This document shows, one piece after another, positions 2,091-12,169 of a DNA stretch of 64,000 nt. The translations under genes were made by a program, and so were the position numbers. The notes below the pieces were generated by a model. The model saw only the letters and a list, made by a program, of their open reading frames with translations. It did no database searches and had not been told where the DNA came from. Origin of the DNA: Escherichia coli (lineage in GTDB: Bacteria > Pseudomonadota > Gammaproteobacteria > Enterobacterales > Enterobacteriaceae); NCBI RefSeq assembly GCF_003334355.1, contig NZ_QOWP01000020.1, one strand, 5' to 3'. Each line of letters begins with the position of its first letter. Position 1 is the first letter of the stretch.

Positions 2091-4094
2091 TTAACGAACC
2101 AGATGCAGGAAGTGCAGGTGTTTTTCGTACTGGTCCAGTATGTCATTAATCAGCTGTTCCTGATTCCAGCCCATTACATCATAATTTTGGCCGCCCTCTT
2201 TGAGATAGACTTCAGCGCGATAATATCGATGTTGTTCACTCTGCTGCTCATCATTATCCAGCGCAGCGAGCGCGAAGGTCGGTGAGTTATACCCGCGAAG
2301 CCTCACTTCATATATATAATTCAGCTCGTTGCCCAAATCGACTTCAAGGCGAATACGATCCTCGGCGGCGTCACTGATGTGGCTTATCGTTCCCTGCTTG
2401 TTAAGTTCCTCCTGAACCAGCGTCATGGCGGGTTGGATAATGTCGTCCATAAAACGTTTCACAAGAGAGCGCTTCGGCAAATACGCGATATTGCGTAACC
2501 TTCTCTGCCAGGGAATTGGGTTACGTGCAGCCGTAGGAGCAATAGTCGCCATGCTAAGGCTTTCACGCTTGGTCAAATCCCGACGCAGGGCTTTTAACAG
2601 TCCGTATATGGATATTAATAAGATAACTGAGAAGGGCAATGCACTCGCTATCGTTACGGTTTGCAACGCACTCAGCCCCCCTGCGATCAGCAGGGCAATA
2701 GCAACAACGCCCATGAGCGATGCCCAGAAAATTCGCTGCCAGACGGGCGTGTTTGCCACCCCACCTGATGCCAGAGTATCCACAACCATTGCCCCCGAAT
2801 CAGCAGACGTTACAAAGAAGACGATGACCATCGCCATTGCAATGAATGACAGCACGGAAGAGAACGGGAAATGCTCCAGGAAATTAAACAGGGCAAGCGC
2901 AACATCCTGCTGAACGGTATTGGCGAGGTCAGTGGCGCCCTGGTTCATGATGAGATAGATGGCGCTGTTTCCAAACACCGTCATCCACATGAGCGTAAAG
3001 CCGGCGGGAACAAACAACACGCCAGTCACGAACTCACGAATTGTCCTGCCGCGGGAAACGCGTGCAATGAACATACCTACAAACGGCGACCATGAAAGCC
3101 ACCATCCCCAGTATAATAATGTCCAGCCCCCCAGCCAGTTGCTCGACTTGGGTTCATACGCGTAAAGGTTGAACGTTTTACTCACCAGTTCCGACAGATA
3201 ACCACCCGTATTTTCCACAAATGACTTCAGCAGAAGCACAGTGGGACCCAGGCACAAGACCAGCGCCAGGAGCAACACCGCCAGGCCCAGATTAAGCTCA
3301 GACAGGATGCGTATTCCCTTGTCCAGGCCGGACACCACCGAAATCGTCGCTAACCCCGTGATGACCACGATCAAAATGACCTGTACCGTTTCATTGATGG
3401 GCACGCCGAAAAGATGGTTCAAACCGGCATTCACCTGCAATACACCGTAACCCAGCGATGTTGCAACGCCAAAGACAGTGCCTATCACGGCGAAGATATC
3501 AACCGCGTGGCCTATAGGCCCGTAAATGCGATCGCCGATAATGGGATAGAGCGCAGAACGCAGCGTTAAAGGCAGACCGTGACGGTAACTGAAAAAGGCC
3601 AGAATCAGCGCCACGATGGCATAAATTGCCCATGCGTGCAGACCCCAGTGGAAGAACGTCAGGCGCATGGCTTCCTTCGCTGCCGCAACGGTCTCTGGAG
3701 TGCCGACAGGTGGCGAAAGATAATGCATCACAGGTTCGGCAACGCCAAAGAACATCAGGCCGATCCCCATCCCTGCCGAAAAAAGCATCGCGAACCAGGA
3801 GTGGTAGCTGAAATCAGGCTGCGCATGGTCTGGGCCCAGCTTTATATCACCGTAACGTGAGAGTCCAAGGAACGTGACGCTCAGTAAAATCAGGGCCACA
3901 GCAAGTATGTAGAACCAGCTGGCATTCGTGAAGATTTGTTGCTGAAGTAGTTTAAAATTTTTGTCGGCGACATCCGGGAATACGGCGGCAAAGGCGACAA
4001 GAAGGAAAATTAGCAAAGCAGATGTAAAGAATACCGCTTTGTTAATCTGGCTTGTAGACTTCTTTGGGGTTGTATCATTTTCACTCATAATCAT
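2091..4094 (-). CDS. BCCT-family transporter (betaine/carnitine/choline type), BetT-like with long C-terminal cytoplasmic extension
   Basis: 667-aa ORF. Conserved BCCT motifs (GWTLLYWGWWLSWSPFVGMFIARVSRGRTIREF) and overall similarity to E. coli BetT recalled from memory; clearly not identical to betT, caiT or yeaV. Confidence 0.8.
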   Translation of the reverse strand: MIMSENDTTPKKSTSQINKAVFFTSALLIFLLVAFAAVFPDVADKNFKLLQQQIFTNASWFYILAVALILLSVTFLGLSRYGDIKLGPDHAQPDFSYHSWFAMLFSAGMGIGLMFFGVAEPVMHYLSPPVGTPETVAAAKEAMRLTFFHWGLHAWAIYAIVALILAFFSYRHGLPLTLRSALYPIIGDRIYGPIGHAVDIFAVIGTVFGVATSLGYGVLQVNAGLNHLFGVPINETVQVILIVVITGLATISVVSGLDKGIRILSELNLGLAVLLLALVLCLGPTVLLLKSFVENTGGYLSELVSKTFNLYAYEPKSSNWLGGWTLLYWGWWLSWSPFVGMFIARVSRGRTIREFVTGVLFVPAGFTLMWMTVFGNSAIYLIMNQGATDLANTVQQDVALALFNFLEHFPFSSVLSFIAMAMVIVFFVTSADSGAMVVDTLASGGVANTPVWQRIFWASLMGVVAIALLIAGGLSALQTVTIASALPFSVILLISIYGLLKALRRDLTKRESLSMATIAPTAARNPIPWQRRLRNIAYLPKRSLVKRFMDDIIQPAMTLVQEELNKQGTISHISDAAEDRIRLEVDLGNELNYIYEVRLRGYNSPTFALAALDNDEQQSEQHRYYRAEVYLKEGGQNYDVMGWNQEQLINDILDQYEKHLHFLHLVR

Positions 4095-4428: not shown

Positions 4429-4851
4429 TCACTTCAATAAATACCGAACATCCCCCTGATAAAACGACAATATGCGCTGCATAACTTCGCTCTTCCGGCA
4501 CTCGCGACAGATTATGTTTAGGCGACTGTCGTAGCGACGTATTTCTCCGTCAGGTAATGACCAGATAAGGTCCGGATCAACCACAACCGGTTTCTTCAGC
4601 TTTGCCCTCGATAATTTTTTGCGGGCATTTTGCCAGTCTTTACGAGCCTGTTCAGACGGGAATAACCCGTAGCCAGAATTGTATACATCGCCACTGGCAA
4701 CCAGCTCTCTGGCCAGAACGCTCATCAGATATCTTGTTGCCCCAGTTTTAGCTTCCAGTTGTCGTAACGTCTCGCGCCCACTCTGGCGTACGAGTTCAAG
4801 AACCTGCCCTTTAATTTTTTCCCGCTCTTCTTGTGTAAAAACTTTTGCCAC
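4429..4851 (-). CDS. Hypothetical prophage protein, 140 aa, basic, possible winged-helix segment
   Basis: ORF directly downstream of the ydaU-like gene; no Walker A motif, so not the DnaC-like ydaV expected at this position in K-12 Rac. No family recognised. Confidence 0.45.
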   Translation of the reverse strand: MAKVFTQEEREKIKGQVLELVRQSGRETLRQLEAKTGATRYLMSVLARELVASGDVYNSGYGLFPSEQARKDWQNARKKLSRAKLKKPVVVDPDLIWSLPDGEIRRYDSRLNIICRECRKSEVMQRILSFYQGDVRYLLK

Positions 4852-4891: not shown

Positions 4892-5968
4892 TTACCCCCT
4901 GAAGCCCGGCGGAATTTCGTTATCCGGTTCAGAAATATGATTCACACAACGCTGGTTGTTCGTGCCGCTTACCGGGAGCAACCAGGGGTTCTCAAAATTC
5001 CGGTCCGGTCCAAAAAACGTCGTCGCTCGCTGAACAAATTCCGTTCCCGTTTTCCCGGTAGCCGCCAAGTATCTTGCGTAACGCCTCACGCCATCCAGCA
5101 TGGCCTCTGGTGGCACCCCCTCGCGTAATCTGGCCTTCCAGGCACTGAAAGCGGATTTCTTCGGGTTTGCCCCAGCACGCAACGGGTACTCCCGCCAGAC
5201 CTGTTCGAACACATCCGGATAATCCACTCGTCCCACAGACTGCCCGGTGTTTTCCGGGACTACCCGATCGGCTTCCCGCTGAATGGCGGAATCGGCTTCA
5301 GGCTGCTGCAGTTGGTGTGATTGCTCCGCCCTTGCGGTCATCACCTGCTGCACAGCGCCCGAATCGGCTTTCAGCGCATACGCTGAATCGGCTTCCGGTG
5401 TCGTGCCTGCTGGCTGACCAAGATTGACGGTCTGAACATCCCCTGCCTGGTTCGTGGCGTTTTTTACGCCATGGACCATAGTGTTTTGATCTTCTTGATC
5501 TGTATCTTTATCTGTATCTTTATCTGTCGTGACTCGTCGTGACATGTGCGTGACATTTCGTGACGCGCCGTGACAATCGCCATTTTGTTCCCGCTTTCTT
5601 TCCCTCTCTCGCTGCGCCCTCTTGCGCTCTGCAGGAGATTTTGCGGTTTGCGAAATATTGCCGTTGTCCTCTTTAAGCACCTGGCGTTTTTCCCATCCAG
5701 TGATTAAATCACCATCAAGTACCCGCCCCTGCATCGTCTGCAAAATTGAATCAATTACCTCTTCTGTCACGTCGAGCGCACTTGCCAAATCTTCTGTCGT
5801 GACATCAATGTGACCTCGCGTGACATTTCGTGACGCGCTCACCAGGAGGTGGATATACACTGCCATCACTGTTGCAATTGGCTGTCCTGACACCCTGGCA
5901 ATTGTTCGCCACTTAGGGTCATTTGGCATGTCATGCCATAATCTGAGCCAGGCGTTAGCCATACTCAC
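4892..5968 (-). CDS. ydaU: YdaU-like prophage replication protein (DUF1376-like N-terminus, DnaT-like C-terminus, repeat-rich acidic linker)
   Basis: 358-aa ORF next to ydaT as in K-12 Rac; contains internal DNA direct repeats. Longer than the 285 aa I recall for K-12 YdaU, so treated as ydaU-like. Confidence 0.55.
   Translation of the reverse strand: MSMANAWLRLWHDMPNDPKWRTIARVSGQPIATVMAVYIHLLVSASRNVTRGHIDVTTEDLASALDVTEEVIDSILQTMQGRVLDGDLITGWEKRQVLKEDNGNISQTAKSPAERKRAQRERERKREQNGDCHGASRNVTHMSRRVTTDKDTDKDTDQEDQNTMVHGVKNATNQAGDVQTVNLGQPAGTTPEADSAYALKADSGAVQQVMTARAEQSHQLQQPEADSAIQREADRVVPENTGQSVGRVDYPDVFEQVWREYPLRAGANPKKSAFSAWKARLREGVPPEAMLDGVRRYARYLAATGKTGTEFVQRATTFFGPDRNFENPWLLPVSGTNNQRCVNHISEPDNEIPPGFRG
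5526..5576. repeat. Iteron-like cluster 1: five CGTGAC direct repeats at 10-11 bp spacing, preceded by an AT-rich TATCTT/TATCTG repeat tract (5489-5527)
   Basis: CGTGAC at 5528, 5538, 5549, 5559, 5569; read directly. Confidence 0.6.
5797..5836. repeat. Iteron-like cluster 2: four (C/T)GTGAC direct repeats at 10-11 bp spacing, plus an inverted GTCACG at 5767-5772
   Basis: Repeats at 5798, 5809, 5819, 5829; the 19-mer GCGTGACATTTCGTGACGCG is shared with cluster 1. Confidence 0.6.
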
Positions 5969-6033
5969 CTCTTTTGATACCGAATCTTTTTACTCACAAA
6001 TTGCCGGAAGTGATCCGGTATGAATATTGCGCG

Positions 6034-6459
6034 TCAATGCACAGCCACAATATTTCCTGCAGGGCCACCACGATTCATCTGGTTGAAACCAGCGATCGCC
6101 ACTGCGACAAAATCATCAGCGTCTCTCACCAGTCGTTCCCGCGTCTCCACTAGTTCCCGAAAATAGGCTGAGCTATGGCTGCGCATTCGGGCCACCAGCA
6201 GAGGTGGCATTGCTTTTTCGATAGCTGGTAACAACGCCTGAATTTTTTCAACTGCATCAGGGGTGTCTTTCTCTACCCAGCGGAAAATTTTCTGGGTATT
6301 GCGAGCCAGGGCTTCCGGATGGCTGTCGTCATACAGTTCTGGGAACGTCATACCCAGTTCAAAATAAGCCCTGGTTATTTCAGCTGCCGGAACTTTTTCA
6401 CCGTCCGGATGCGCCCAGGCATTCATCGCCATGCGGATGTGTTCATGCTTGATTTTCAT
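6034..6459 (-). CDS. ydaT: Rac prophage YdaT-like protein (toxic when derepressed)
   Basis: 141-aa ORF at the K-12 ydaT position, overlapping the upstream ydaS by 17 bp. Confidence 0.65.
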   Translation of the reverse strand: MKIKHEHIRMAMNAWAHPDGEKVPAAEITRAYFELGMTFPELYDDSHPEALARNTQKIFRWVEKDTPDAVEKIQALLPAIEKAMPPLLVARMRSHSSAYFRELVETRERLVRDADDFVAVAIAGFNQMNRGGPAGNIVAVH

Positions 6460-6724
6460 GAATCAAGCTCCTAGAAAGTGGTTGTGTTAACATTTTGGTA
6501 TCTTCCAGCTCGGGCCAAATATTCATCCAATCAAAAGGCCTTAGTTGCTGACGTGTAACTTCACCATTACTGGCTCGCTCAATAAGGACACATAACGATG
6601 CCCCTAACACTTGACCTTTACTCAATGCCTTTCTTAGATAACCGATGCTGGTACCACACTCGCATGCAAACATACGCTGTTCATCTGACGAAAGAGAATT
6701 GAGAAATATTCTTAATTCTTCCAT
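6443..6724 (-). CDS. ydaS: Rac prophage YdaS-like HTH protein
   Basis: 93-aa ORF divergent from racR, first gene of the ydaS-ydaT pair. Confidence 0.6.
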   Translation of the reverse strand: MEELRIFLNSLSSDEQRMFACECGTSIGYLRKALSKGQVLGASLCVLIERASNGEVTRQQLRPFDWMNIWPELEDTKMLTQPLSRSLIHENQA

Positions 6725-6752
6725 AGCTACTCCTTAGTAAACACAGCAAAGA

Positions 6753-6828
6753 ATACCCATAGGTAAACAAAAGTCAATACCCACAGGTTGTTTACCTTGC
6801 AGTAATCGCATCTATTATTTACCTATGG
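6753..6828. promoter_or_regulatory. Divergent racR / ydaS-ydaT control region with repeated ATACCCATAGGTA-type operator half-sites
   Basis: ATACCCATAGGTAAAC (6753-6768), TACCCACAGGTTGTTTACC (6778-6796) and its inverted copy TATTTACCTATGG (6816-6828, overlapping the racR start). Confidence 0.5.
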
Positions 6829-7244
6829 ACAAATATGAATTTAGACGACAGCAACTCATCAAAATTCGTGATGAGAAATGCGATGGTAAAGCGGTTAACG
6901 TGGCCAGAAAGATCGGGCGCGAGCCTTCTTATGTATCAAGAATGTTGTACCCAGAGGGGAAAAAGGGAAAAAAACGGATCGCTGATGATATGGTGGAGAT
7001 TATCGAAGAGTCCTTTGGGTTACCCCGGGGATGGATGGATGGTATCGTTTCATCATCAACGAACACAGCCTCCAGTTATGAAACAAGGGTTCTAACGCCA
7101 CGACAACGTATTTTTTTAGATCTCTTAGACGAACTGCCAGAAAGTGAAGCGGATAACTTATTAAAAACTCTTGAAGAGAAAAAACAGTATTACAATATGA
7201 TCTACGAAGAAATCCGTAAAAAGAAAGCACAAAACGCATCATAG
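6825..7244 (+). CDS. racR: RacR-like prophage repressor (XRE/HTH-like)
   Basis: 139-aa ORF divergent from ydaS-ydaT, at the K-12 racR position; no in-frame upstream start before the stop at 6738. Confidence 0.6.
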   Translation: MDKYEFRRQQLIKIRDEKCDGKAVNVARKIGREPSYVSRMLYPEGKKGKKRIADDMVEIIEESFGLPRGWMDGIVSSSTNTASSYETRVLTPRQRIFLDLLDELPESEADNLLKTLEEKKQYYNMIYEEIRKKKAQNAS

Positions 7245-7285
7245 CTCACCAAACAACTAGTCACCAGTTAAGACACCGTAAAAAG

Positions 7286-7324
7286 TTACCCATGGGTATT
7301 TACTTTTTAAATACCTATGGGTAT
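7286..7324. promoter_or_regulatory. Operator-like palindromes downstream of racR and upstream of ydaG-ydaF
   Basis: Perfect 12-bp palindrome TACCCATGGGTA (7287-7298) and 14-bp near-palindrome ATACCTATGGGTAT (7311-7324), same motif family as the racR upstream sites. Confidence 0.5.
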
Positions 7325-7498
7325 CCTTCTTTTCATACCAACCCACCCCGCCCCACAGAATGCAGGGCAATACTTCGAGTTACCAGGCAGTGGTCAGGGG
7401 TTAAGTAGCCAGCCCGAGGCGTAAGAACATGACGGCGGGATTCAAATTTTGCAGTGCAGCAGTTAGTTCCGCCACCCGGCGTTAAGGGGAGAGATAAG

Positions 7499-7633
7499 AT
7501 GGTGCATTACGAAGTAGTTCAGTATTTGATGGATTGTTGCGGTATCACTTACAACCAGGCTGTGCAGGCTTTACGCAGCAACGACTGGGATCTCTGGCAG
7601 GCAGAAGTCGCTATACGTAGCAACAAGATGTGA
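7499..7633 (+). CDS. ydaG: Rac prophage small protein YdaG (44 aa)
   Basis: ATG preceded by a GGGGAG RBS; below the track's 60-aa cutoff, translated by hand; position matches K-12 order racR-ydaG-ydaF-sieB. Confidence 0.55.
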   Translation: MVHYEVVQYLMDCCGITYNQAVQALRSNDWDLWQAEVAIRSNKM

Positions 7634-7643
7634 GATTCGCAAA

Positions 7644-7799
7644 ATGCAAAAAATCGACCTCGGCAACAACGAATCCCTGGTGTGCGGCGTGTTCCCCAAC
7701 CAGGATGGAACGTTCACTGCCATGACGTATACCAAAAGCAAAACATTTAAAACCGAAACTGGTGCGCGCCGATGGTTGGAGAAGCACACAGTAAGCTAA
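7644..7799 (+). CDS. ydaF: Rac prophage small protein YdaF (51 aa)
   Basis: Hand-translated (MQKIDLGNNESLVCGVFPNQDGTFTAMTYTKSKTFKTETGARRWLEKHTVS); below the track cutoff. Confidence 0.55.
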   Translation: MQKIDLGNNESLVCGVFPNQDGTFTAMTYTKSKTFKTETGARRWLEKHTVS

Positions 7800-8284
7800 C
7801 GATTAAAACGTCTACTCCTGCTGTTCCAGAATAACTTCATAAAATGGGAGTATTTTTCGGTGACGAGATAATAAGAACAGTTTGCGCTATCACTCTGATG
7901 TTGAATGATGCCCTTCCGTTCTAATTTTTTCATAACCGGGTTACGGCAAGGAGAAGTGATAATAAGATTTCCTGTTTTAAGGAAATCTTTAAATACAGCG
8001 ATTTCTTTCTCAGATAAACGAAGCAATACTCGTTGCTCTGGTAGTAATGAATAATGCTTTTGAATATGTGCTCGCAATCTTGAGAAGGAAATGGCGACCA
8101 CGAAAGAAAAGGCAAAAACGATAATCTGAAAGAGCCAAGGTATTTCAGTATAAGCATTGAATGCGACAGTAAACTCTTTCGGTATCAGCCAGAGAGTGAG
8201 ACCAAAAATGATAATCGTATACATAAGTCTTTCGAGTGGCTCGTTAGCAAAAAGTTTCAACAATGGAGTAAATACATCCAACAT
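7796..8284 (-). CDS. sieB: Superinfection exclusion protein SieB
   Basis: 162-aa product starting MLDVFTPLL at an internal ATG of the 203-aa track ORF; matches recalled SieB length and sequence. Confidence 0.8.
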   Translation of the reverse strand: MLDVFTPLLKLFANEPLERLMYTIIIFGLTLWLIPKEFTVAFNAYTEIPWLFQIIVFAFSFVVAISFSRLRAHIQKHYSLLPEQRVLLRLSEKEIAVFKDFLKTGNLIITSPCRNPVMKKLERKGIIQHQSDSANCSYYLVTEKYSHFMKLFWNSRSRRFNR

Positions 8285-8725
8285 ATCAATAACTCTCAAC
8301 TGTAAGGGTATTGAAATGTTAACACAAGCTCTCGCTGTAGGGGTATAGCCGAGACCACCGAAGCCCGGAGGTGGTGAAATAAAACCGGGCACAACACGAA
8401 GGCGCATTTCCGATATCCATAAAGAGTCGGTCTTGTCTGTTAAATTTAAATGGTGGGAGTGCGCCTCCGGTTGTAAATAACGACATTGCTGTGTGTAGTC
8501 CTGGCGGCATCAGTTTTTTTCTTGAAGTTCGGCTGATGTCCGCCCTTTTTAAAGTGAATTTTGTGATGCGGTGAATGCGGCTAAGCGCACGTGGCACAGT
8601 TAAAAGTCATGTTAGTCCTTATTGGTTTGGGTGGGAAAGCCGACTGTAATTGTTAACTGGTTGCAGTCACCTGGAGGCACCAGACACCGCATCAACAAAG
8701 TTCATTTGTAAAAATGGAGATAATT

Positions 8726-8947
8726 ATGATTGCACATCACTTCGGAACTGATGAAATACCACGTCAGTGTGTGACTCCTGGCGATTATGTTCTTCATGAA
8801 GGCCGGACATATATTGCCTCGGCAAACAATATTAAAAAGCGAAAACTATATATTCGTAACCTGACCACAAAAACATTCATTACTGACCGCATGATTAAAG
8901 TCTTCCTCGGTCGTGATGGTTTACCTGTAAAGGCGGAGTCATGGTGA
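8726..8947 (+). CDS. kilR: KilR, FtsZ-targeting cell division inhibitor of Rac
   Basis: 73-aa product [12 protein letters not shown]... from an internal ATG of the track ORF. Confidence 0.85.
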
Positions 8948-9117
8948 TGACTAAGAAAATAAAATGTGCTTACCACCTTTGCAAAAAAGACGTTGAAGAA
9001 AGCAAAGCTATTGAAAGAATGCTTCACTTCATGCACGGGATTTTATCAAAAGACGAACCGAGAAAATATTGCAGTGAAGCTTGTGCCGAAAAAGACCAGA
9101 TGGCACATGAACTTTAA
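8947..9117 (+). CDS. ydaE: Rac prophage small Cys-rich protein YdaE (56 aa)
   Basis: Hand-translated [14 protein letters not shown]...; start overlaps the kilR stop (TGATG); below the track cutoff. Confidence 0.7.
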   Translation: MTKKIKCAYHLCKKDVEESKAIERMLHFMHGILSKDEPRKYCSEACAEKDQMAHEL

Positions 9118-9191
9118 TTAATTGACTATTCGAAACTGAATTTATGCCAGAAATGGCAGGTATTCGCTCAACCTTAATTAAGGAGAAAAAC

Positions 9192-9467
9192 ATGATTACC
9201 AATTATGAAGCCACTGTTGTAACTACCGATGACATTGTTCACGAGGTGAATCTGGAAGGAAAGCGCATTGGCTACGTAATTAAAACAGAAAATAAAGAAA
9301 CCCCATTCACTGTGGTTGATATCGATGGTCCATCAGGCAACGTAAAAACACTTGATGAAGGTGTCAAAAAAATGTGCCTGGTGCATATCGGAAAGAATCT
9401 GCCCGCAGAAAAAAAAGCCGAATTTCTGGCAACTCTAATTGCAATGAAATTAAAAGGTGAAATCTGA
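9192..9467 (+). CDS. racC: RacC
   Basis: 91-aa product MITNYEATVV... with an AAGGAG RBS; internal start of the track ORF. Confidence 0.8.
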   Translation: MITNYEATVVTTDDIVHEVNLEGKRIGYVIKTENKETPFTVVDIDGPSGNVKTLDEGVKKMCLVHIGKNLPAEKKAEFLATLIAMKLKGEI

Positions 9468-9568
9468 AAGAAATAGCCTGCGTATGGCGCAGGCTATGAA
9501 CAGTGTGTATCCGGCAAGATCATTCACTGAACAAAACGAATTTTAATCTGAGTTGAGGTTAAAAAACA

Positions 9569-12169
9569 ATGAGCACAAAACCACTCTTCCTGTTACGGAA
9601 AGCGAAAAAATCATCCGGTGAACCTGACGTCGTCCTGTGGGCAAGCAACGATTTTGAATCGACCTGTGCCACTCTGGACTACCTGATCGTTAAGTCAGGT
9701 AAAAAACTGAGCAGCTATTTTAAAGCTGTTGCCACGAATTTTCCTGTCGTTAATGACCTGCCCGCTGAAGGTGAGATCGATTTTACCTGGAGTGAACGCT
9801 ATCAACTCAGCAAAGACTCCATGACATGGGAACTAAAACCGGGAGCAGCACCAGACAACGCTCACTATCAAGGCAATACCAACGTCAACGGCGAAGACAT
9901 GACTGAGATTGAGGAGAATATGCTACTCCCAATTTCTGGCCAGGAACTGCCCATTCGTTGGCTTGCTCAACACGGCAGCGAAAAACCGGTAACGCACGTT
10001 TCACGCGACGGACTCCAGGCATTACACATTGCTCTGGCTGAAGAACTACCGGCTGTTACTGCCCTGGCTGTTTCCCACAAAACCAGCCTGCTCGACCCGC
10101 TGGAAATTCGCGAACTCCACAAACTGGTTCGTGACACTGACAAAGTTTTCCCTAATCCTGGTAATTCAAACCTGGGACTGATAACTGCTTTTTTCGAAGC
10201 ATACCTGAACGCTGACTACACCGATCGAGGACTGCTGACAAAAGAGTGGATGAAGGGTAATCGTGTTTCACACATCACTCGCACGGCTTCCGGTGCTAAT
10301 GCTGGCGGCGGAAACCTCACCGATCGCGGCGAAGGTTTCGTACACGATCTGACGTCACTGGCGCGCGACGTAGCCACTGGCGTACTGGCCCGTTCAATGG
10401 ATCTGGACATCTATAACCTTCATCCGGCACACGCTAAACGCATTGAGGAAATTATCGCTGAAAATAAACCGCCCTTTTCTGTTTTCCGCGACAAATTCAT
10501 CACCATGCCTGGCGGGCTGGATTATTCCCGCGCCATCGTGGTTGCGTCCGTAAAAGAAGCACCAATTGGGATCGAGGTCATCCCCGCGCACGTCACTGAA
10601 TATCTGAACAAAGTACTGACTGAAACCGATCATGCCAACCCTGATCCGGAAATCGTGGATATTGCCTGCGGTCGCTCCTCTGCCCCGATGCCGCAGCGAG
10701 TAACAGAAGAAGGAAAACAGGATGATGAAGAAAAACCGCAACCATCTGGAACAACGGCAGTTGAACAGGGAGAGGCTGAAACAATGGAACCGGACGCAAC
10801 TGAACATCATCAGGACACGCAGCCGCTGGATGCTCAGTCACAGGTAAATTCTGTTGATGCGAAATATCAGGAACTGCGGGCAGAACTCCATGAAGCCCGG
10901 AAAAACATTCCATCAAAAAATCCTGTCGATGACGATAAATTGCTTGCTGCATCACGTGGTGAATTTGTTGACGGAATTAGCGACCCGAACGATCCGAAAT
11001 GGGTAAAGGGGATCCAGACTCGCGATTGTGTGTACCAGAACCAGCCAGAAACGGAAAAAACCAGCCCAGATATGAATCAACCTGAGCCAGTAGTGCAACA
11101 GGAACCGGAAATAGCCTGCAATGCCTGCGGCCAGACTGGCGGGGATAACTGCCCTGACTGTGGTGCGGTGATGGGCGACGCAACATACCAGGAAACATTC
11201 GATGAAGAGAGTCAGGTTGAAGCTAAGGAAAATGATCCGGAGGAAATGGAAGGCGCTGAACATCCGCACAATGAGAATGCTGGCAGCGATCCGCATCGCG
11301 ATTGCAGTGATGAAACTGGCGAAGTCGCAGATCCCGTAATCGTAGAAGACATAGAGCCAGGTATTTATTACGGAATTTCGAATGAGAATTACCACGCGGG
11401 TCCCGGTATCAGTAAGTCTCAGCTCGATGACATTGCTGATACTCCGGCACTATATTTGTGGCGTAAAAATGCCCCCGTGGACACCACAAAGACAAAAACG
11501 CTCGATTTAGGAACTGCTTTCCACTGCCGGGTACTTGAACCGGAAGAATTCAGTAACCGCTTTATCGTAGCACCTGAATTTAACCGCCGTACAAACGCCG
11601 GAAAAGAAGAAGAGAAAGCGTTTCTGATGGAATGCGCAAGCACAGGAAAAACGGTTATCACTGCGGAAGAAGGCCGGGAAATTGAACTCATGTATCAAAG
11701 CGTTATGGCTTTGCCGCTGGGGCAATGGCTTGTTGAAAGCGCCGGACACGCTGAATCATCAATTTACTGGGAAGATCCTGAAACAGGAATTTTGTGTCGG
11801 TGCCGTCCGGACAAAATTATCCCTGAATTTCACTGGATCATGGACGTGAAAACTACGGCGGATATTCAACGATTCAAAACCGCTTATTACGACTACCGCT
11901 ATCACGTTCAGGATGCATTCTACAGTGACGGTTATGAAGCACAGTTTGGAGTGCAGCCAACTTTCGTTTTTCTGGTTGCCAGCACAACTATTGAATGCGG
12001 ACGTTATCCGGTTGAAATTTTCATGATGGGCGAAGAAGCAAAACTGGCAGGTCAACAGGAATATCACCGCAATCTGCGAACCCTGTCTGACTGCCTGAAT
12101 ACCGATGAATGGCCAGCTATTAAGACATTATCACTGCCCCGCTGGGCTAAGGAATATGCAAATGACTAA
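9569..12169 (+). CDS. recE: Exodeoxyribonuclease VIII (RecE)
   Basis: 866-aa ORF, same length as K-12 RecE; C-terminal region overlaps the recT start by 8 bp. Confidence 0.9.

Follow-up and report, generated by a model that had tools for sequence, protein, structure and literature searches.

Comparison with described immunity regions

In phage lambda, the repressor gene and the divergent cro gene form a pair, palindromic operators lie in several copies over PR and PRM, and a second group of operators covers a promoter that directs transcription away from the repressor gene and into the early-left genes. A layout of the same kind was found at positions 6466-7333 of the DNA studied here, an Escherichia coli stretch of 64 kb that is called the window below, and this segment is very probably a self-contained lambdoid immunity cassette with OR plus OL/PL, carried by a Rac-type prophage. 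A leaderless repressor mRNA, here predicted, and an exchangeable immunity cassette are further features in common with lambda. However, the operator sequence differs and is here TACC-N4-GGTA with a 12-bp core, there are two left operator sites versus three OL sites in lambda, and the repressor is a protein of 139 aa without the S24 autocleavage domain. In addition, OL lies 43 bp past the repressor stop here, without rex genes or a separate terminator, and neither an N gene nor a nut site follows PL.

The arrangement of OR plus OL/PL is already known in kind, with experimental precedents in CP-933P and Qin, and because the mechanism is that of a textbook lambdoid switch, it should not surprise a specialist. 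In CP-933P of E. coli O157:H7, it was demonstrated experimentally that PaaR2 and YdaS regulate PL933P, which contains OL1-3 (PMC8630535). The present prophage has the same backbone, a Cro of the YdaS family, YdaT as the CII analogue and a short repressor that is not of the S24 type and whose transcript lacks a leader (here predicted). In both prophages, OR-related operators are located on PL downstream of the repressor operon, the PL of the window being putative. The repressor and the operators of CP-933P (GTTTAGTAA repeats) are unrelated to those of the window, and a toxin-antitoxin pair is situated between the repressor and PL. In Qin, DicA represses dicBp (bioRxiv 10.1101/2023.04.14.536235 and the papers by Bejar et al. 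to which it refers). DicA is a non-cleavable repressor of 135 aa whose C-terminal domain is homologous to that of the window repressor; operators flank dicA, dicBp is equivalent to PL, and part of the leader is in common. The differences are the DNA-binding domain, the operator sequence and the control of DicA by the antirepressor Rem.

The K-12 Rac prophage, also chromosomal, has the same layout and the same flanking genes (ydaT-like, ydaG, ydaF, sieB, kilR and recET), whereas its repressor is non-homologous, its Cro-like protein is barely similar and its operators are RacR boxes. The functional lambdoid phage mEp043 (NC_019706) shares with the window the DNA-binding domain of the repressor (65% identity between residues 1-86 and the mEp043 cI), Cro (73% identity) and the operator motif. 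The spacing of the sites is the same as well, with distances of 25 and 15 bp at OR versus 24 and 15 bp in the window, and 25 bp at OL in both. In contrast, the mEp043 cI protein is 228 aa long and ends in an S24 peptidase domain; the PL of this phage comes after an additional gene and a canonical terminator and is itself followed by nutL and N. The PL of mEp043 is known as an annotation, not from experiment, and no operator study was found in a literature search for this phage.

Repressor and Cro-like proteins

In the preliminary description, the gene at 6825-7244 (plus strand) was taken to be racR. Its position is indeed that of racR, but its product (WP_000362155.1, annotated as "hypothetical protein") showed no similarity to K-12 RacR (best BLASTP E = 2.3). 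Instead, the sequence points to an mEp043-cI-type N-terminal helix-turn-helix domain joined to a DicA-type helical C-terminal domain. Identities of 60-82% over the N-terminal 75-100 residues were obtained with many PF00717 proteins of 221-242 aa, which aligned to the N-terminal 53-73% of the repressor only. A Pfam search of the repressor returned no domain, S24 peptidase included. By sequence comparison, the repressor is thus without a C-terminal S24 autocleavage domain, yet its N-terminal domain is homologous to that of S24-type repressors. The C-terminal domain was 33% identical to DicA over 46 residues (E = 1e-7), and the NCBIfam DicA profile NF007257 matched residues 81-131 with 23.9 bits, below its cut-off of 101. 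Since the DNA-binding domain is not DicA-like, the protein is considered a chimera and not a DicA orthologue.

The helix-turn-helix fold of the N-terminus is predicted by an AlphaFold model (mean pLDDT 85) with helices at residues 3-18, 23-30, 34-40 and 54-63; the C-terminal domain was modelled as two helices that form a long helical hairpin. The best Foldseek neighbours were phage repressors, C proteins and HigA, all of them weak (E of 1.3e-3 or worse). A profile match to the N-terminal domain of P22 C2 was found with E = 0.0017, the input alignment including DicA, and a PDB sequence search with the repressor gave chance-level matches only.

The divergent gene (6443-6724, minus strand) encodes a Cro-like protein of 93 aa that belongs to phrog_35. 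Because it is close to the Cro of mEp043 and has no more than marginal similarity to K-12 YdaS, the statement that RacR represses a toxic ydaS-ydaT pair has no direct transfer to this locus. The published RacR box, (T/A)TAGGC-N3-GCCTA(T/A) (PMC9638921), was absent from the whole window even when one mismatch was tolerated. Considering that the repressor is unlike RacR and that the window has no RacR box, K-12 RacR footprints are uninformative for this locus, and results on K-12 RacR are not transferable to the present strain. Naming immunity genes by position can thus mislead in mosaic prophages. As for annotation, a product labelled "hypothetical protein" in every row inspected gains a likely role and a predicted operator.

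Operator motif and the probable right operator cluster

Three exact copies of TACC-N4-GGTA were found in the window (6754-6765, 7287-7298 and 7312-7323), where ~0.3 were expected, and all three were confined to 570 bp. In a first-order Markov simulation, three sites within 600 bp occurred in none of 1000 runs; a Poisson estimate of the clustering with Bonferroni correction was ~8e-7. When up to one mismatch was allowed, 17 sites were counted in the window. Five of these lay inside 590 bp, which corresponded to a 45-fold enrichment, and the remaining 12 represented the chance rate; the two copies with one mismatch in the cluster are at 6778-6789 and 6793-6804. The palindrome family reported earlier on both sides of the repressor gene is therefore real and its clustering non-random. 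Across five E. coli variants, operator substitutions fell in the central N4 or in the flanks, and the TACC/GGTA arms were never changed.

The motif was also searched in seven related prophages whose repressors share the DNA-binding domain: mEp043 and prophages of Salmonella, Klebsiella, Pantoea, Yersinia, Serratia and Edwardsiella. It was present upstream of the repressor in all seven. Exact sites were located near -72 and -32 in four of them (Salmonella, Yersinia, Serratia and Edwardsiella), at -61 and -21 in Pantoea, and in Klebsiella solely at -46; in mEp043, the motif occurred at 3429, 3454 and 3469.

OR site 1 (TACCCATAGGTA, 6754-6765) is exact, lies 71 nt upstream of the repressor ATG and covers the spacer and the -10 of the cro-side promoter. 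Its central N4 alone varied among the five E. coli variants, and six of the seven relatives have an exact site at the equivalent -72 position. OR site 2 (TACCCACAGGTT, 6778-6789) has one mismatch and a degenerate right half; it adjoins the cro-side -35 and sits just 5' of the -35 of the repressor promoter, and its left half, caaTACC, is kept at -47 among the relatives. OR site 3 (TACCTTGCAGTA, 6793-6804), also with one mismatch, overlaps the -35 of the repressor promoter. It corresponds to the conserved -32 site of the family, which is perfect in the E. coli variants L004 and L005 (TACCTTGCGGTA and TACCTTACGGTA) and exact in five of the seven relatives, with Pantoea having its site at -21 and Klebsiella none there. 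The single site given earlier as 6778-6796 did contain operator sequence, although as sites 2 and 3 merged.

A weak match at 6820-6831 (TACCTATGGACA), described earlier as a site at 6816-6828, has two arm mismatches and places the repressor ATG within its spacer. Since it is missing from mEp043 and the other relatives, it was downgraded from a firm fourth operator to a doubtful one. Its position is analogous to that of RacR O3 (PMC9638921). In the Tritos immunity type, the third site likewise overlaps the repressor start.

Two divergent promoter-like sequences were identified by a consensus scan, each with 9/12 matches. The PR-like promoter of the Cro-like gene (6750-6777, minus strand) consists of a -35 TTGACT (6777-6772), a 16-nt spacer and a -10 TATTCT (6755-6750). 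The PRM-like promoter of the repressor (6791-6818, plus strand) consists of a -35 TTTACC and a -10 TATTAT. Because the latter hexamer ends 6 nt before the ATG at 6825, the repressor mRNA is predicted to be leaderless; no Shine-Dalgarno sequence was present upstream of this ATG. In our reading of the alignment, a -10-like hexamer ends 6 nt before the ATG in mEp043, Salmonella, Yersinia, Serratia and Edwardsiella as well. Repressor mRNAs without a leader have been described in the case of RacR (PMC9638921) and PaaR2 (PMC8630535).

Probable left operators and leftward promoter

Downstream of the repressor gene, OL site a (TACCCATGGGTA, 7287-7298) is an exact motif and a perfect 12-nt palindrome, and OL site b (TACCTATGGGTA, 7312-7323) is an exact motif identical to the reverse complement of OR site 1. 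Site a was invariant in the five variants, and six of the seven relatives have an equivalent site. Between and over these sites lies a PL-like promoter (7299-7327, plus strand) with a -35 TTTACT (7299-7304) that adjoins site a, a 17-nt spacer and a -10 TATCCT (7322-7327) that is overlapped by site b. It points at ydaG-ydaF, with a predicted start at ~7334-7335. The hexamers match the consensus at 8/12 by eye and were missed by the scan, for which the threshold was 9/12. Therefore, the PL call rests on the duplication of PR and on comparative evidence: the PL-like region nearly repeats the PR-like region, and this extends to the operators (GGGTATTGACTTTTG-TTTACCTATGGGTATTCTT versus GGGTATTTACTTTTTAAATACCTATGGGTATCCTT). 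In the variant L005, the -10 is improved to TATACT.

The layout of the PL-like region is the same as at the annotated putative PL of mEp043, where the motif occurs at 4596 and 4621, and in the six further relatives. A downstream pair with a spacing of 25-26 bp was found in six of the seven relatives, and Edwardsiella had one exact downstream site. In five of the six relatives other than mEp043, the pair lay 113-1943 bp past the repressor stop. A -35-like T(T/A)(T/G)AC adjoins site a in the relatives, and a -10-like TAT(A/C)(T/C)T overlaps site b. These in silico data support the interpretation of the downstream pair as the left operator and promoter (OL/PL) of a lambdoid immunity region. The earlier proposal that the downstream sites control ydaG-ydaF through RacR is thus retained as to a promoter-like sequence reading into these genes and abandoned as to RacR as the repressor.

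The predicted PL start and ydaG are separated by a conserved leader of 165 nt (7334-7498, plus strand). A ydaG-like gene (7499-7633) and ydaF (7644-7799), both on the plus strand according to the annotation of the identical locus L001, are the first genes of the leftward operon. An Rfam search of 6000-9600 returned no family at the operators or in the leader. Folding of 7330-7505 was no better than that of shuffled sequence (z = 0.03), so a structured leader RNA or nut-like element was dropped.

Alternative readings of the operator sites

When transcribed, the two OL sites would form a hairpin with a 16-bp stem and a 5-nt loop, followed by UCCUUCUUUU (7287-7333, plus strand), and a terminator scan returned it as a candidate intrinsic terminator of the repressor transcript (-22.9 kcal/mol, z = -5.0). 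A hairpin at OL is to be expected, however, since two palindromic operators automatically yield one. It is highly improbable that the downstream pair is a rho-independent terminator and nothing else, with no protein bound and its likeness to the upstream sites incidental. The scan match with its T-rich tail and its folding energy would agree with such a reading, as would the search from the stop at 7244, which found no other terminator before OL and no further one up to the leader. The stem is maintained in all variants, where four of four right-arm substitutions keep the pairing (U-A to U-G or G-U to G-C), and part of the conservation of the OL pair could thus act at the RNA level. But two complementary arms suffice for a terminator, whereas each arm here is self-complementary as well and an exact OR motif. 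Moreover, the relatives have the pair in its -35/-10-like context 113-1943 bp past the repressor stop, in four of them after their own canonical GC-rich terminator, and a T-rich tail is not a constant feature among them; the hairpin of the K-12 RacR pair is weak (-11.6 kcal/mol) and lacks a T tract. A tentative combination of the two functions has better prospects, in which the element would serve as the OL/PL operator-promoter in DNA and as the intrinsic terminator of the repressor transcript in RNA, so that transcripts reading through from the repressor promoter would end only a few bases from the PL start. All of the terminator evidence and all of the operator evidence would be accommodated together. 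Furthermore, the 43-bp distance from the stop to OL is the shortest among the relatives, the hairpin is the strongest (-22 to -24.5 versus -12 to -18 kcal/mol), and the tail, with 7/10 T, is the most T-rich together with that of Klebsiella. The repressor and the early-left genes are co-oriented and need insulation; in lambda, a terminator is present before PL. On the other hand, with 5 G-C pairs of 16 the stem is rich in A and U, its length is unusual, and a C breaks the U tract. Two palindromes with an AT-rich promoter between them will resemble a terminator in any case, and bound repressor could stop read-through without any terminator. It is somewhat doubtful, but conceivable, that left operators, leftward promoter and repressor-gene terminator are compressed into one 47-bp element (7287-7333) that insulates the toxic early-left genes (kilR, recET) from read-through. 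If so, the DNA of this element would bind repressor and RNA polymerase, its RNA would be a 16-bp hairpin with a U tract, repressor transcripts would end a few bases from the PL starts and a separate terminator would not be needed.

The reading of the pair as operators leaves the question of which protein occupies them. That TACC-N4-GGTA is bound mainly by the Cro-like protein, and not by the 139-aa repressor, is very unlikely. Covariation with the motif is as close for the Cro-like protein as for the repressor domain (73% versus 65% identity to mEp043), and in lambda and CP-933P both proteins act on overlapping sites (PMC8630535). However, the CI-type repressor also binds these operators in every studied lambdoid switch, the prophage would be unregulated if there were no sites for its repressor, and the association between domain and motif spans repressors with two different C-terminal domains. 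With the repressor as the binding protein, the OL- and OR-bound molecules may also contact each other and loop out the ~530-bp repressor gene for tighter repression, an addition to the main explanation that is possible rather than probable. The two multi-site clusters are 533-558 bp apart, lambda CI has been described to form loops and octamers, and PaaR2 to form octamers (PMC8630535), and oligomers could arise through the long helical hairpin predicted at the C-terminus. Nevertheless, the OL-OR distance ranges from ~0.8 to 2.4 kb in the relatives, and because of this variation no spacing constraint is visible.

Boundaries of the cassette and proposed switch

Homology to K-12 Rac stopped at ~6465 and resumed at 7334, just past the PL-like -10 and near the expected transcription start, as determined by megablast and alignment. 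The left edge of the exchangeable cassette (6466-7333) coincides with a YdaT box (TTGATTTTCATGAATCAA, 6449-6466) over the start codon of the ydaT-like gene; this box has been published (PMC9986795, PMC11879457). YdaT/CII binding was rejected as the cause of the palindromes, the YdaT box being another sequence at another place. Cassettes of the Tritos and RacR types end at the same right junction, each with its own palindrome pair, and this junction is common to four immunity types. In the relatives L003, L005 and L006, the cassette sits upstream of ydfA and dicB. The repressor is carried by 822 of 5426 complete E. coli genomes, and the 6740-7335 query matched essentially at full length in all 822. 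Therefore, it may be concluded that the segment from OR through the repressor to OL travels as one unit. Judged by these boundaries of homology, the operators are swapped jointly with the repressor and cro, in the form of a single immunity module.

We infer that the 139-aa protein is the one that binds the sites, that it represses both early promoters and that its binding is cooperative. Repressor dimers would recognise TACC-N4-GGTA. Bound at OR (6754, 6778, 6793 and perhaps 6820), the dimers would switch off the promoter on the cro side and adjust the leaderless promoter of the repressor gene itself; bound at OL (7287 and 7312), they would occlude the leftward promoter, which would start at ~7335 and, when free, transcribe the leader and ydaG-ydaF, followed by the more distal kilR, recE and recT. 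The predicted regulon thus comprises the cro-side operon and the operon from ydaG-ydaF to kilR-recET, or the ydfA-dicB operon in relatives.

RacR boxes downstream of racR in K-12

Five matches to the RacR box were found at the K-12 locus. Two of them lie over a TTGACA/TATAGT promoter downstream of racR, which gives the same two-sided layout as in the window; the K-12 fragment L002 carries TAGGCATAGCCTA and TAGGCATTACCTA at 2940-3000. In its general form, the earlier proposal thus applies to genuine RacR of K-12. The published RacR sites are in the racR-ydaS intergenic region and at the start of racR only (PMC5700373, PMC9638921). No description of a two-sided RacR-box layout was found in the literature searched; on sbcA and the Rac promoter, this comprised only reviews, which give no operator detail. 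For K-12, there thus appears to be a small gap between the downstream boxes and a literature on the racR-ydaS region alone. It was reported that K-12 ydaG, ydaF, ydaE and racC are up ~40-fold when RacR falls (PMC6765115). A 40-70-fold derepression from ydaG through kilR has been reported on a drop in RacR, and the two boxes over the promoter beyond racR would account for it.

Palindromic motif in the window

The 64-kb window contained three exact copies of the motif TACC-N4-GGTA (6754, 7287 and 7312), against approximately 0.3 expected. Allowing one mismatch added sites at 6778 and 6793, and the remaining 12 matches in the window occurred at the chance rate. Three exact sites inside 600 bp were obtained in none of 1000 first-order Markov simulations, and the Poisson-Bonferroni estimate for this clustering was ~8e-7. 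The site coordinates given in the preliminary description were correct overall, but the interval 6778-6796 comprised two sites, and TACCTATGGACA at 6816-6828, which matched with two mismatches, is doubtful as an operator. The cluster before the repressor gene (putative OR) and the pair after its stop codon (putative OL) were 533-558 bp apart.

Among four further E. coli loci with the cassette (91-99% identical), the TACC and GGTA arms were constant, and site substitutions were confined to the central N4 or to positions beyond the arms; the 6793 site was a perfect match in two of the four. Three of these loci carried ydfA and dicB, some with ydfB, ydfC or ydfD as well, next to the cassette in place of ydaG-ydaF; this junction is the dicBp position of Qin-type prophages.

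Locus organization and cassette boundaries

The region 5800-8400 was read directly, and its ORFs were listed. The 139-aa repressor ORF (6825-7244, + strand) was divergent from a 93-aa Cro-like ORF (6443-6724, -), next to which lay a 141-aa YdaT-family ORF (6034-6459, -), and it was followed downstream by a ydaG-like gene (7499-7633, +) and ydaF (7644-7799, +). The essentially identical locus of E. coli Combat11I9 (99.9%) is annotated as toxin YdaT family protein, transcriptional regulator, hypothetical protein and phage protein and, further on, YdaF, SieB, KilR, YdaE, RecE, RecT, RalR, XisR and IntR. Considering this annotation, the locus represents a Rac-type prophage that is reversed relative to the K-12 map. 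Megablast and pairwise alignment demonstrated that homology to K-12 Rac stopped at the YdaT box covering the ydaT start (~6465) and restarted at 7334. Therefore, 6466-7333 is a replaced immunity cassette that spans the Cro-like gene, the repressor, the sites between them and both palindromes downstream. Of 5426 complete E. coli genomes, 822 carried the unit 6740-7335 at essentially full length; in every row inspected, the repressor was labelled "hypothetical protein".

The left edge of the exchangeable cassette is marked by a perfect YdaT box, TTGATT-N6-AATCAA (6449-6466), across the start codon of the ydaT-like gene, in agreement with the YdaT binding sites of CP-933P and Rac (PMC9986795, PMC11879457). 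Beyond the right edge, the 165-nt untranslated leader of ydaG (7334-7498; ~97-98% identity in the alignments) is common to at least three immunity types (those of the window, K-12 RacR and phage Tritos) and partly to Qin. This leader matched no Rfam family, did not fold unusually (z = 0.03) and lacked an obvious nut site.

Identity of the repressor

The gene had been taken for racR, which is incorrect: BLASTP of the 139-aa protein against K-12 RacR gave nothing (E = 2.3), and the RacR box TAGGC-N3-GCCTA, of which the K-12 locus has five, was absent from the 64-kb window even at one mismatch. The protein had no Pfam domain and no sequence relative in the PDB, and it fell in phrog_5736, "transcriptional regulator". 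Over its N-terminal 75-100 residues, it shared 60-82% identity with the corresponding domains of many 221-242-aa prophage repressors of the S24-peptidase (LexA/CI) type from Salmonella, Klebsiella, Pantoea, Edwardsiella and Yersinia, and 65% with that of the cI product of the lambdoid phage mEp043. The C-terminal 50 residues resembled the DicA C-terminus (33% identity, E = 1e-7), with a match to the NCBIfam DicA profile at positions 81-131, and also Tritos CI. Because the N-terminus is of the mEp043 type while the C-terminus is of the DicA type, the repressor is, as judged from these alignments, a chimera of an mEp043-type DNA-binding domain and a predicted non-cleavable DicA-type C-terminal domain. 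In the AlphaFold model (mean pLDDT 85), a disordered linker (77-86) connected an N-terminal domain of four to five helices to a C-terminal helical hairpin; the nearest solved folds, all with weak E-values, were phage repressors, restriction-modification C proteins and HigA. The Cro-like protein was 73% identical to mEp043 Cro, and its similarity to K-12 YdaS was marginal.

An overlapping ORF in the +1 frame was also present within the repressor gene (6835-7095). Some database "homologues" (P0015, P0018) begin in this frame (MNLDDSNSS...) and then switch to the repressor frame, which suggests frameshifted or inactivated repressor copies in some E. coli genomes.

Predicted promoters and the proposed role of the downstream pair

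A consensus scan placed the cro-side promoter on the - strand (-35 TTGACT, 6777-6772; -10 TATTCT, 6755-6750) and the repressor promoter on the + strand (-35 TTTACC, 6791-6796; -10 TATTAT, 6813-6818). Since 6 nt separate the latter -10 from the ATG and a Shine-Dalgarno sequence is absent, a leaderless repressor mRNA is predicted. Alignment of 7275-7340 to the reverse complement of the cro-side promoter revealed a near-duplicate: both copies contain, in order, an operator, a -35 (TTGACT versus TTTACT), the identical operator TACCTATGGGTA and a -10 (TATTCT versus TATCCT). The hexamers of this PL-like promoter scored 8/12, slightly below the scan threshold; in variant L005, the -10 is TATACT. The predicted PL start, ~7334-7335, is the point at which K-12 Rac homology restarts. 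The promoter scan, the PR/PL duplication and this coincidence point the same way, to the downstream pair as putative operators of a left promoter.

In mEp043, TACCTGTAGGTA, TACCCATAGGTT and TACCGGCAGGTA lie 72, 47 and 32 nt upstream of cI, and TACCTATAGGTA and TACCTGTAGGTA, 25 bp apart, lie on a promoter annotated "putative PL". Six more prophages (Salmonella, Klebsiella, Pantoea, Yersinia, Serratia and Edwardsiella) were located via diverged repressor homologues, and the motif preceded the repressor start in all six. Salmonella, Yersinia, Serratia and Edwardsiella had exact sites near -72 and -32, Pantoea at -61 and -21, and Klebsiella a single one at -46. The downstream pair was spaced 25-26 bp, 113 to 1943 bp beyond the stop, except in Edwardsiella, which had a single exact site. 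In all six, T(T/A)(T/G)AC adjoined the first downstream site and TAT(A/C)(T/C)T overlapped the end of the second; the next gene, where recognisable, encoded an N-type antiterminator. Considering that these prophages and mEp043 repeat the layout, the DNA-binding domain and the two-sided motif go together across genera and two C-terminal domain types.

As the two left sites are palindromic copies of one sequence, they also form a predicted 16-bp RNA hairpin (-22.9 kcal/mol, z = -5.0) followed by UCCUUCUUUU. The comparative evidence leaves almost no room for the pair acting as a terminator only. A dual role, as operator-promoter and as terminator of the repressor gene, is plausible but less likely than not. 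The 43 bp from the repressor stop to the first left site hold no other terminator, all four right-arm substitutions keep pairing, and among the relatives the hairpin is strongest in the window lineage, whose tail is also, jointly with that of Klebsiella, the most T-rich; a canonical GC-rich terminator precedes PL in mEp043, Pantoea, Yersinia and Serratia. However, any AT-rich promoter flanked by two palindromic operators would have this appearance, so these features argue only weakly for termination.

The palindromes are real and, in our reading, are very probably operators in the usual OR plus OL/PL arrangement of a lambdoid immunity region. Repressor dimers would bind TACC-N4-GGTA, perhaps cooperatively and with a loop between the two clusters. 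Occupancy of 6754 and 6778 would switch off the cro-side promoter. Site 6778 lies just 5' of the repressor promoter -35; in lambda, an operator in this position permits activation. Site 6793, overlapping the -35, and 6820, if real, overlapping the start, would provide negative autoregulation. At 7287 and 7312, the leftward promoter would be occluded, silencing ydaG-ydaF and kilR-recET beyond. The proposal that the same repressor also controls ydaG-ydaF gains in silico support from a conserved motif pair over a PL-like promoter. The operator/repressor specificity is new and uncharacterised, inside a known architecture.

Comparison with further immunity types

K-12 Rac has five RacR boxes, three of them in the racR-ydaS region and two downstream of racR (L002 2954-2991). 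The latter, TAGGCATAGCCTA (exact) and TAGGCATTACCTA (one mismatch), flank TTGACA and overlap TATAGT directly 5' of the common ydaG leader, and look like an apparently undescribed RacR-controlled left promoter. RacR papers place operators O1-O3 between racR and ydaS and describe the racR promoter as leaderless, with ydaG unmentioned (PMC9638921, PMC5700373); no description of the downstream boxes was found in the searchable literature, the older sbcA work being outside its scope. A transcriptome with lowered RacR showed increases of ~40-fold for ydaF, ydaG, ydaE and racC and >70-fold for kilR (PMC6765115), which fits such a promoter.

Tritos has TG(T/A)AC-N5-GTACA palindromes at the same junction, three upstream, the third with ATG in its spacer, and two downstream (L008 2856-2927, 3416-3454). 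Its CI, also of 139 aa, shares the DicA-like C-terminal domain with the window repressor but differs in the DNA-binding domain (39% identity over residues 21-139, mostly in the C-terminal domain). Qin has DicA operators on either side of dicA, and DicA repression of dicBp is established (bioRxiv 10.1101/2023.04.14.536235). In CP-933P, PL933P with OL1-3 was experimentally shown to be regulated by PaaR2 and YdaS (PMC8630535).

The interval between sieB and kilR contains a DicF-like RNA (8490-8545, +; 39.1 bits versus the Rfam gathering score of 48, E ~1e-6), with a conserved terminal stem-loop and an identical copy in K-12 Rac (L002 4156-4211), where only Qin dicF is annotated. Directly 5' of kilR, a weak match to the STnc100 sRNA family (8547-8733, +; 28 bits versus a gathering score of 47, E = 0.002) was also found in K-12 Rac.
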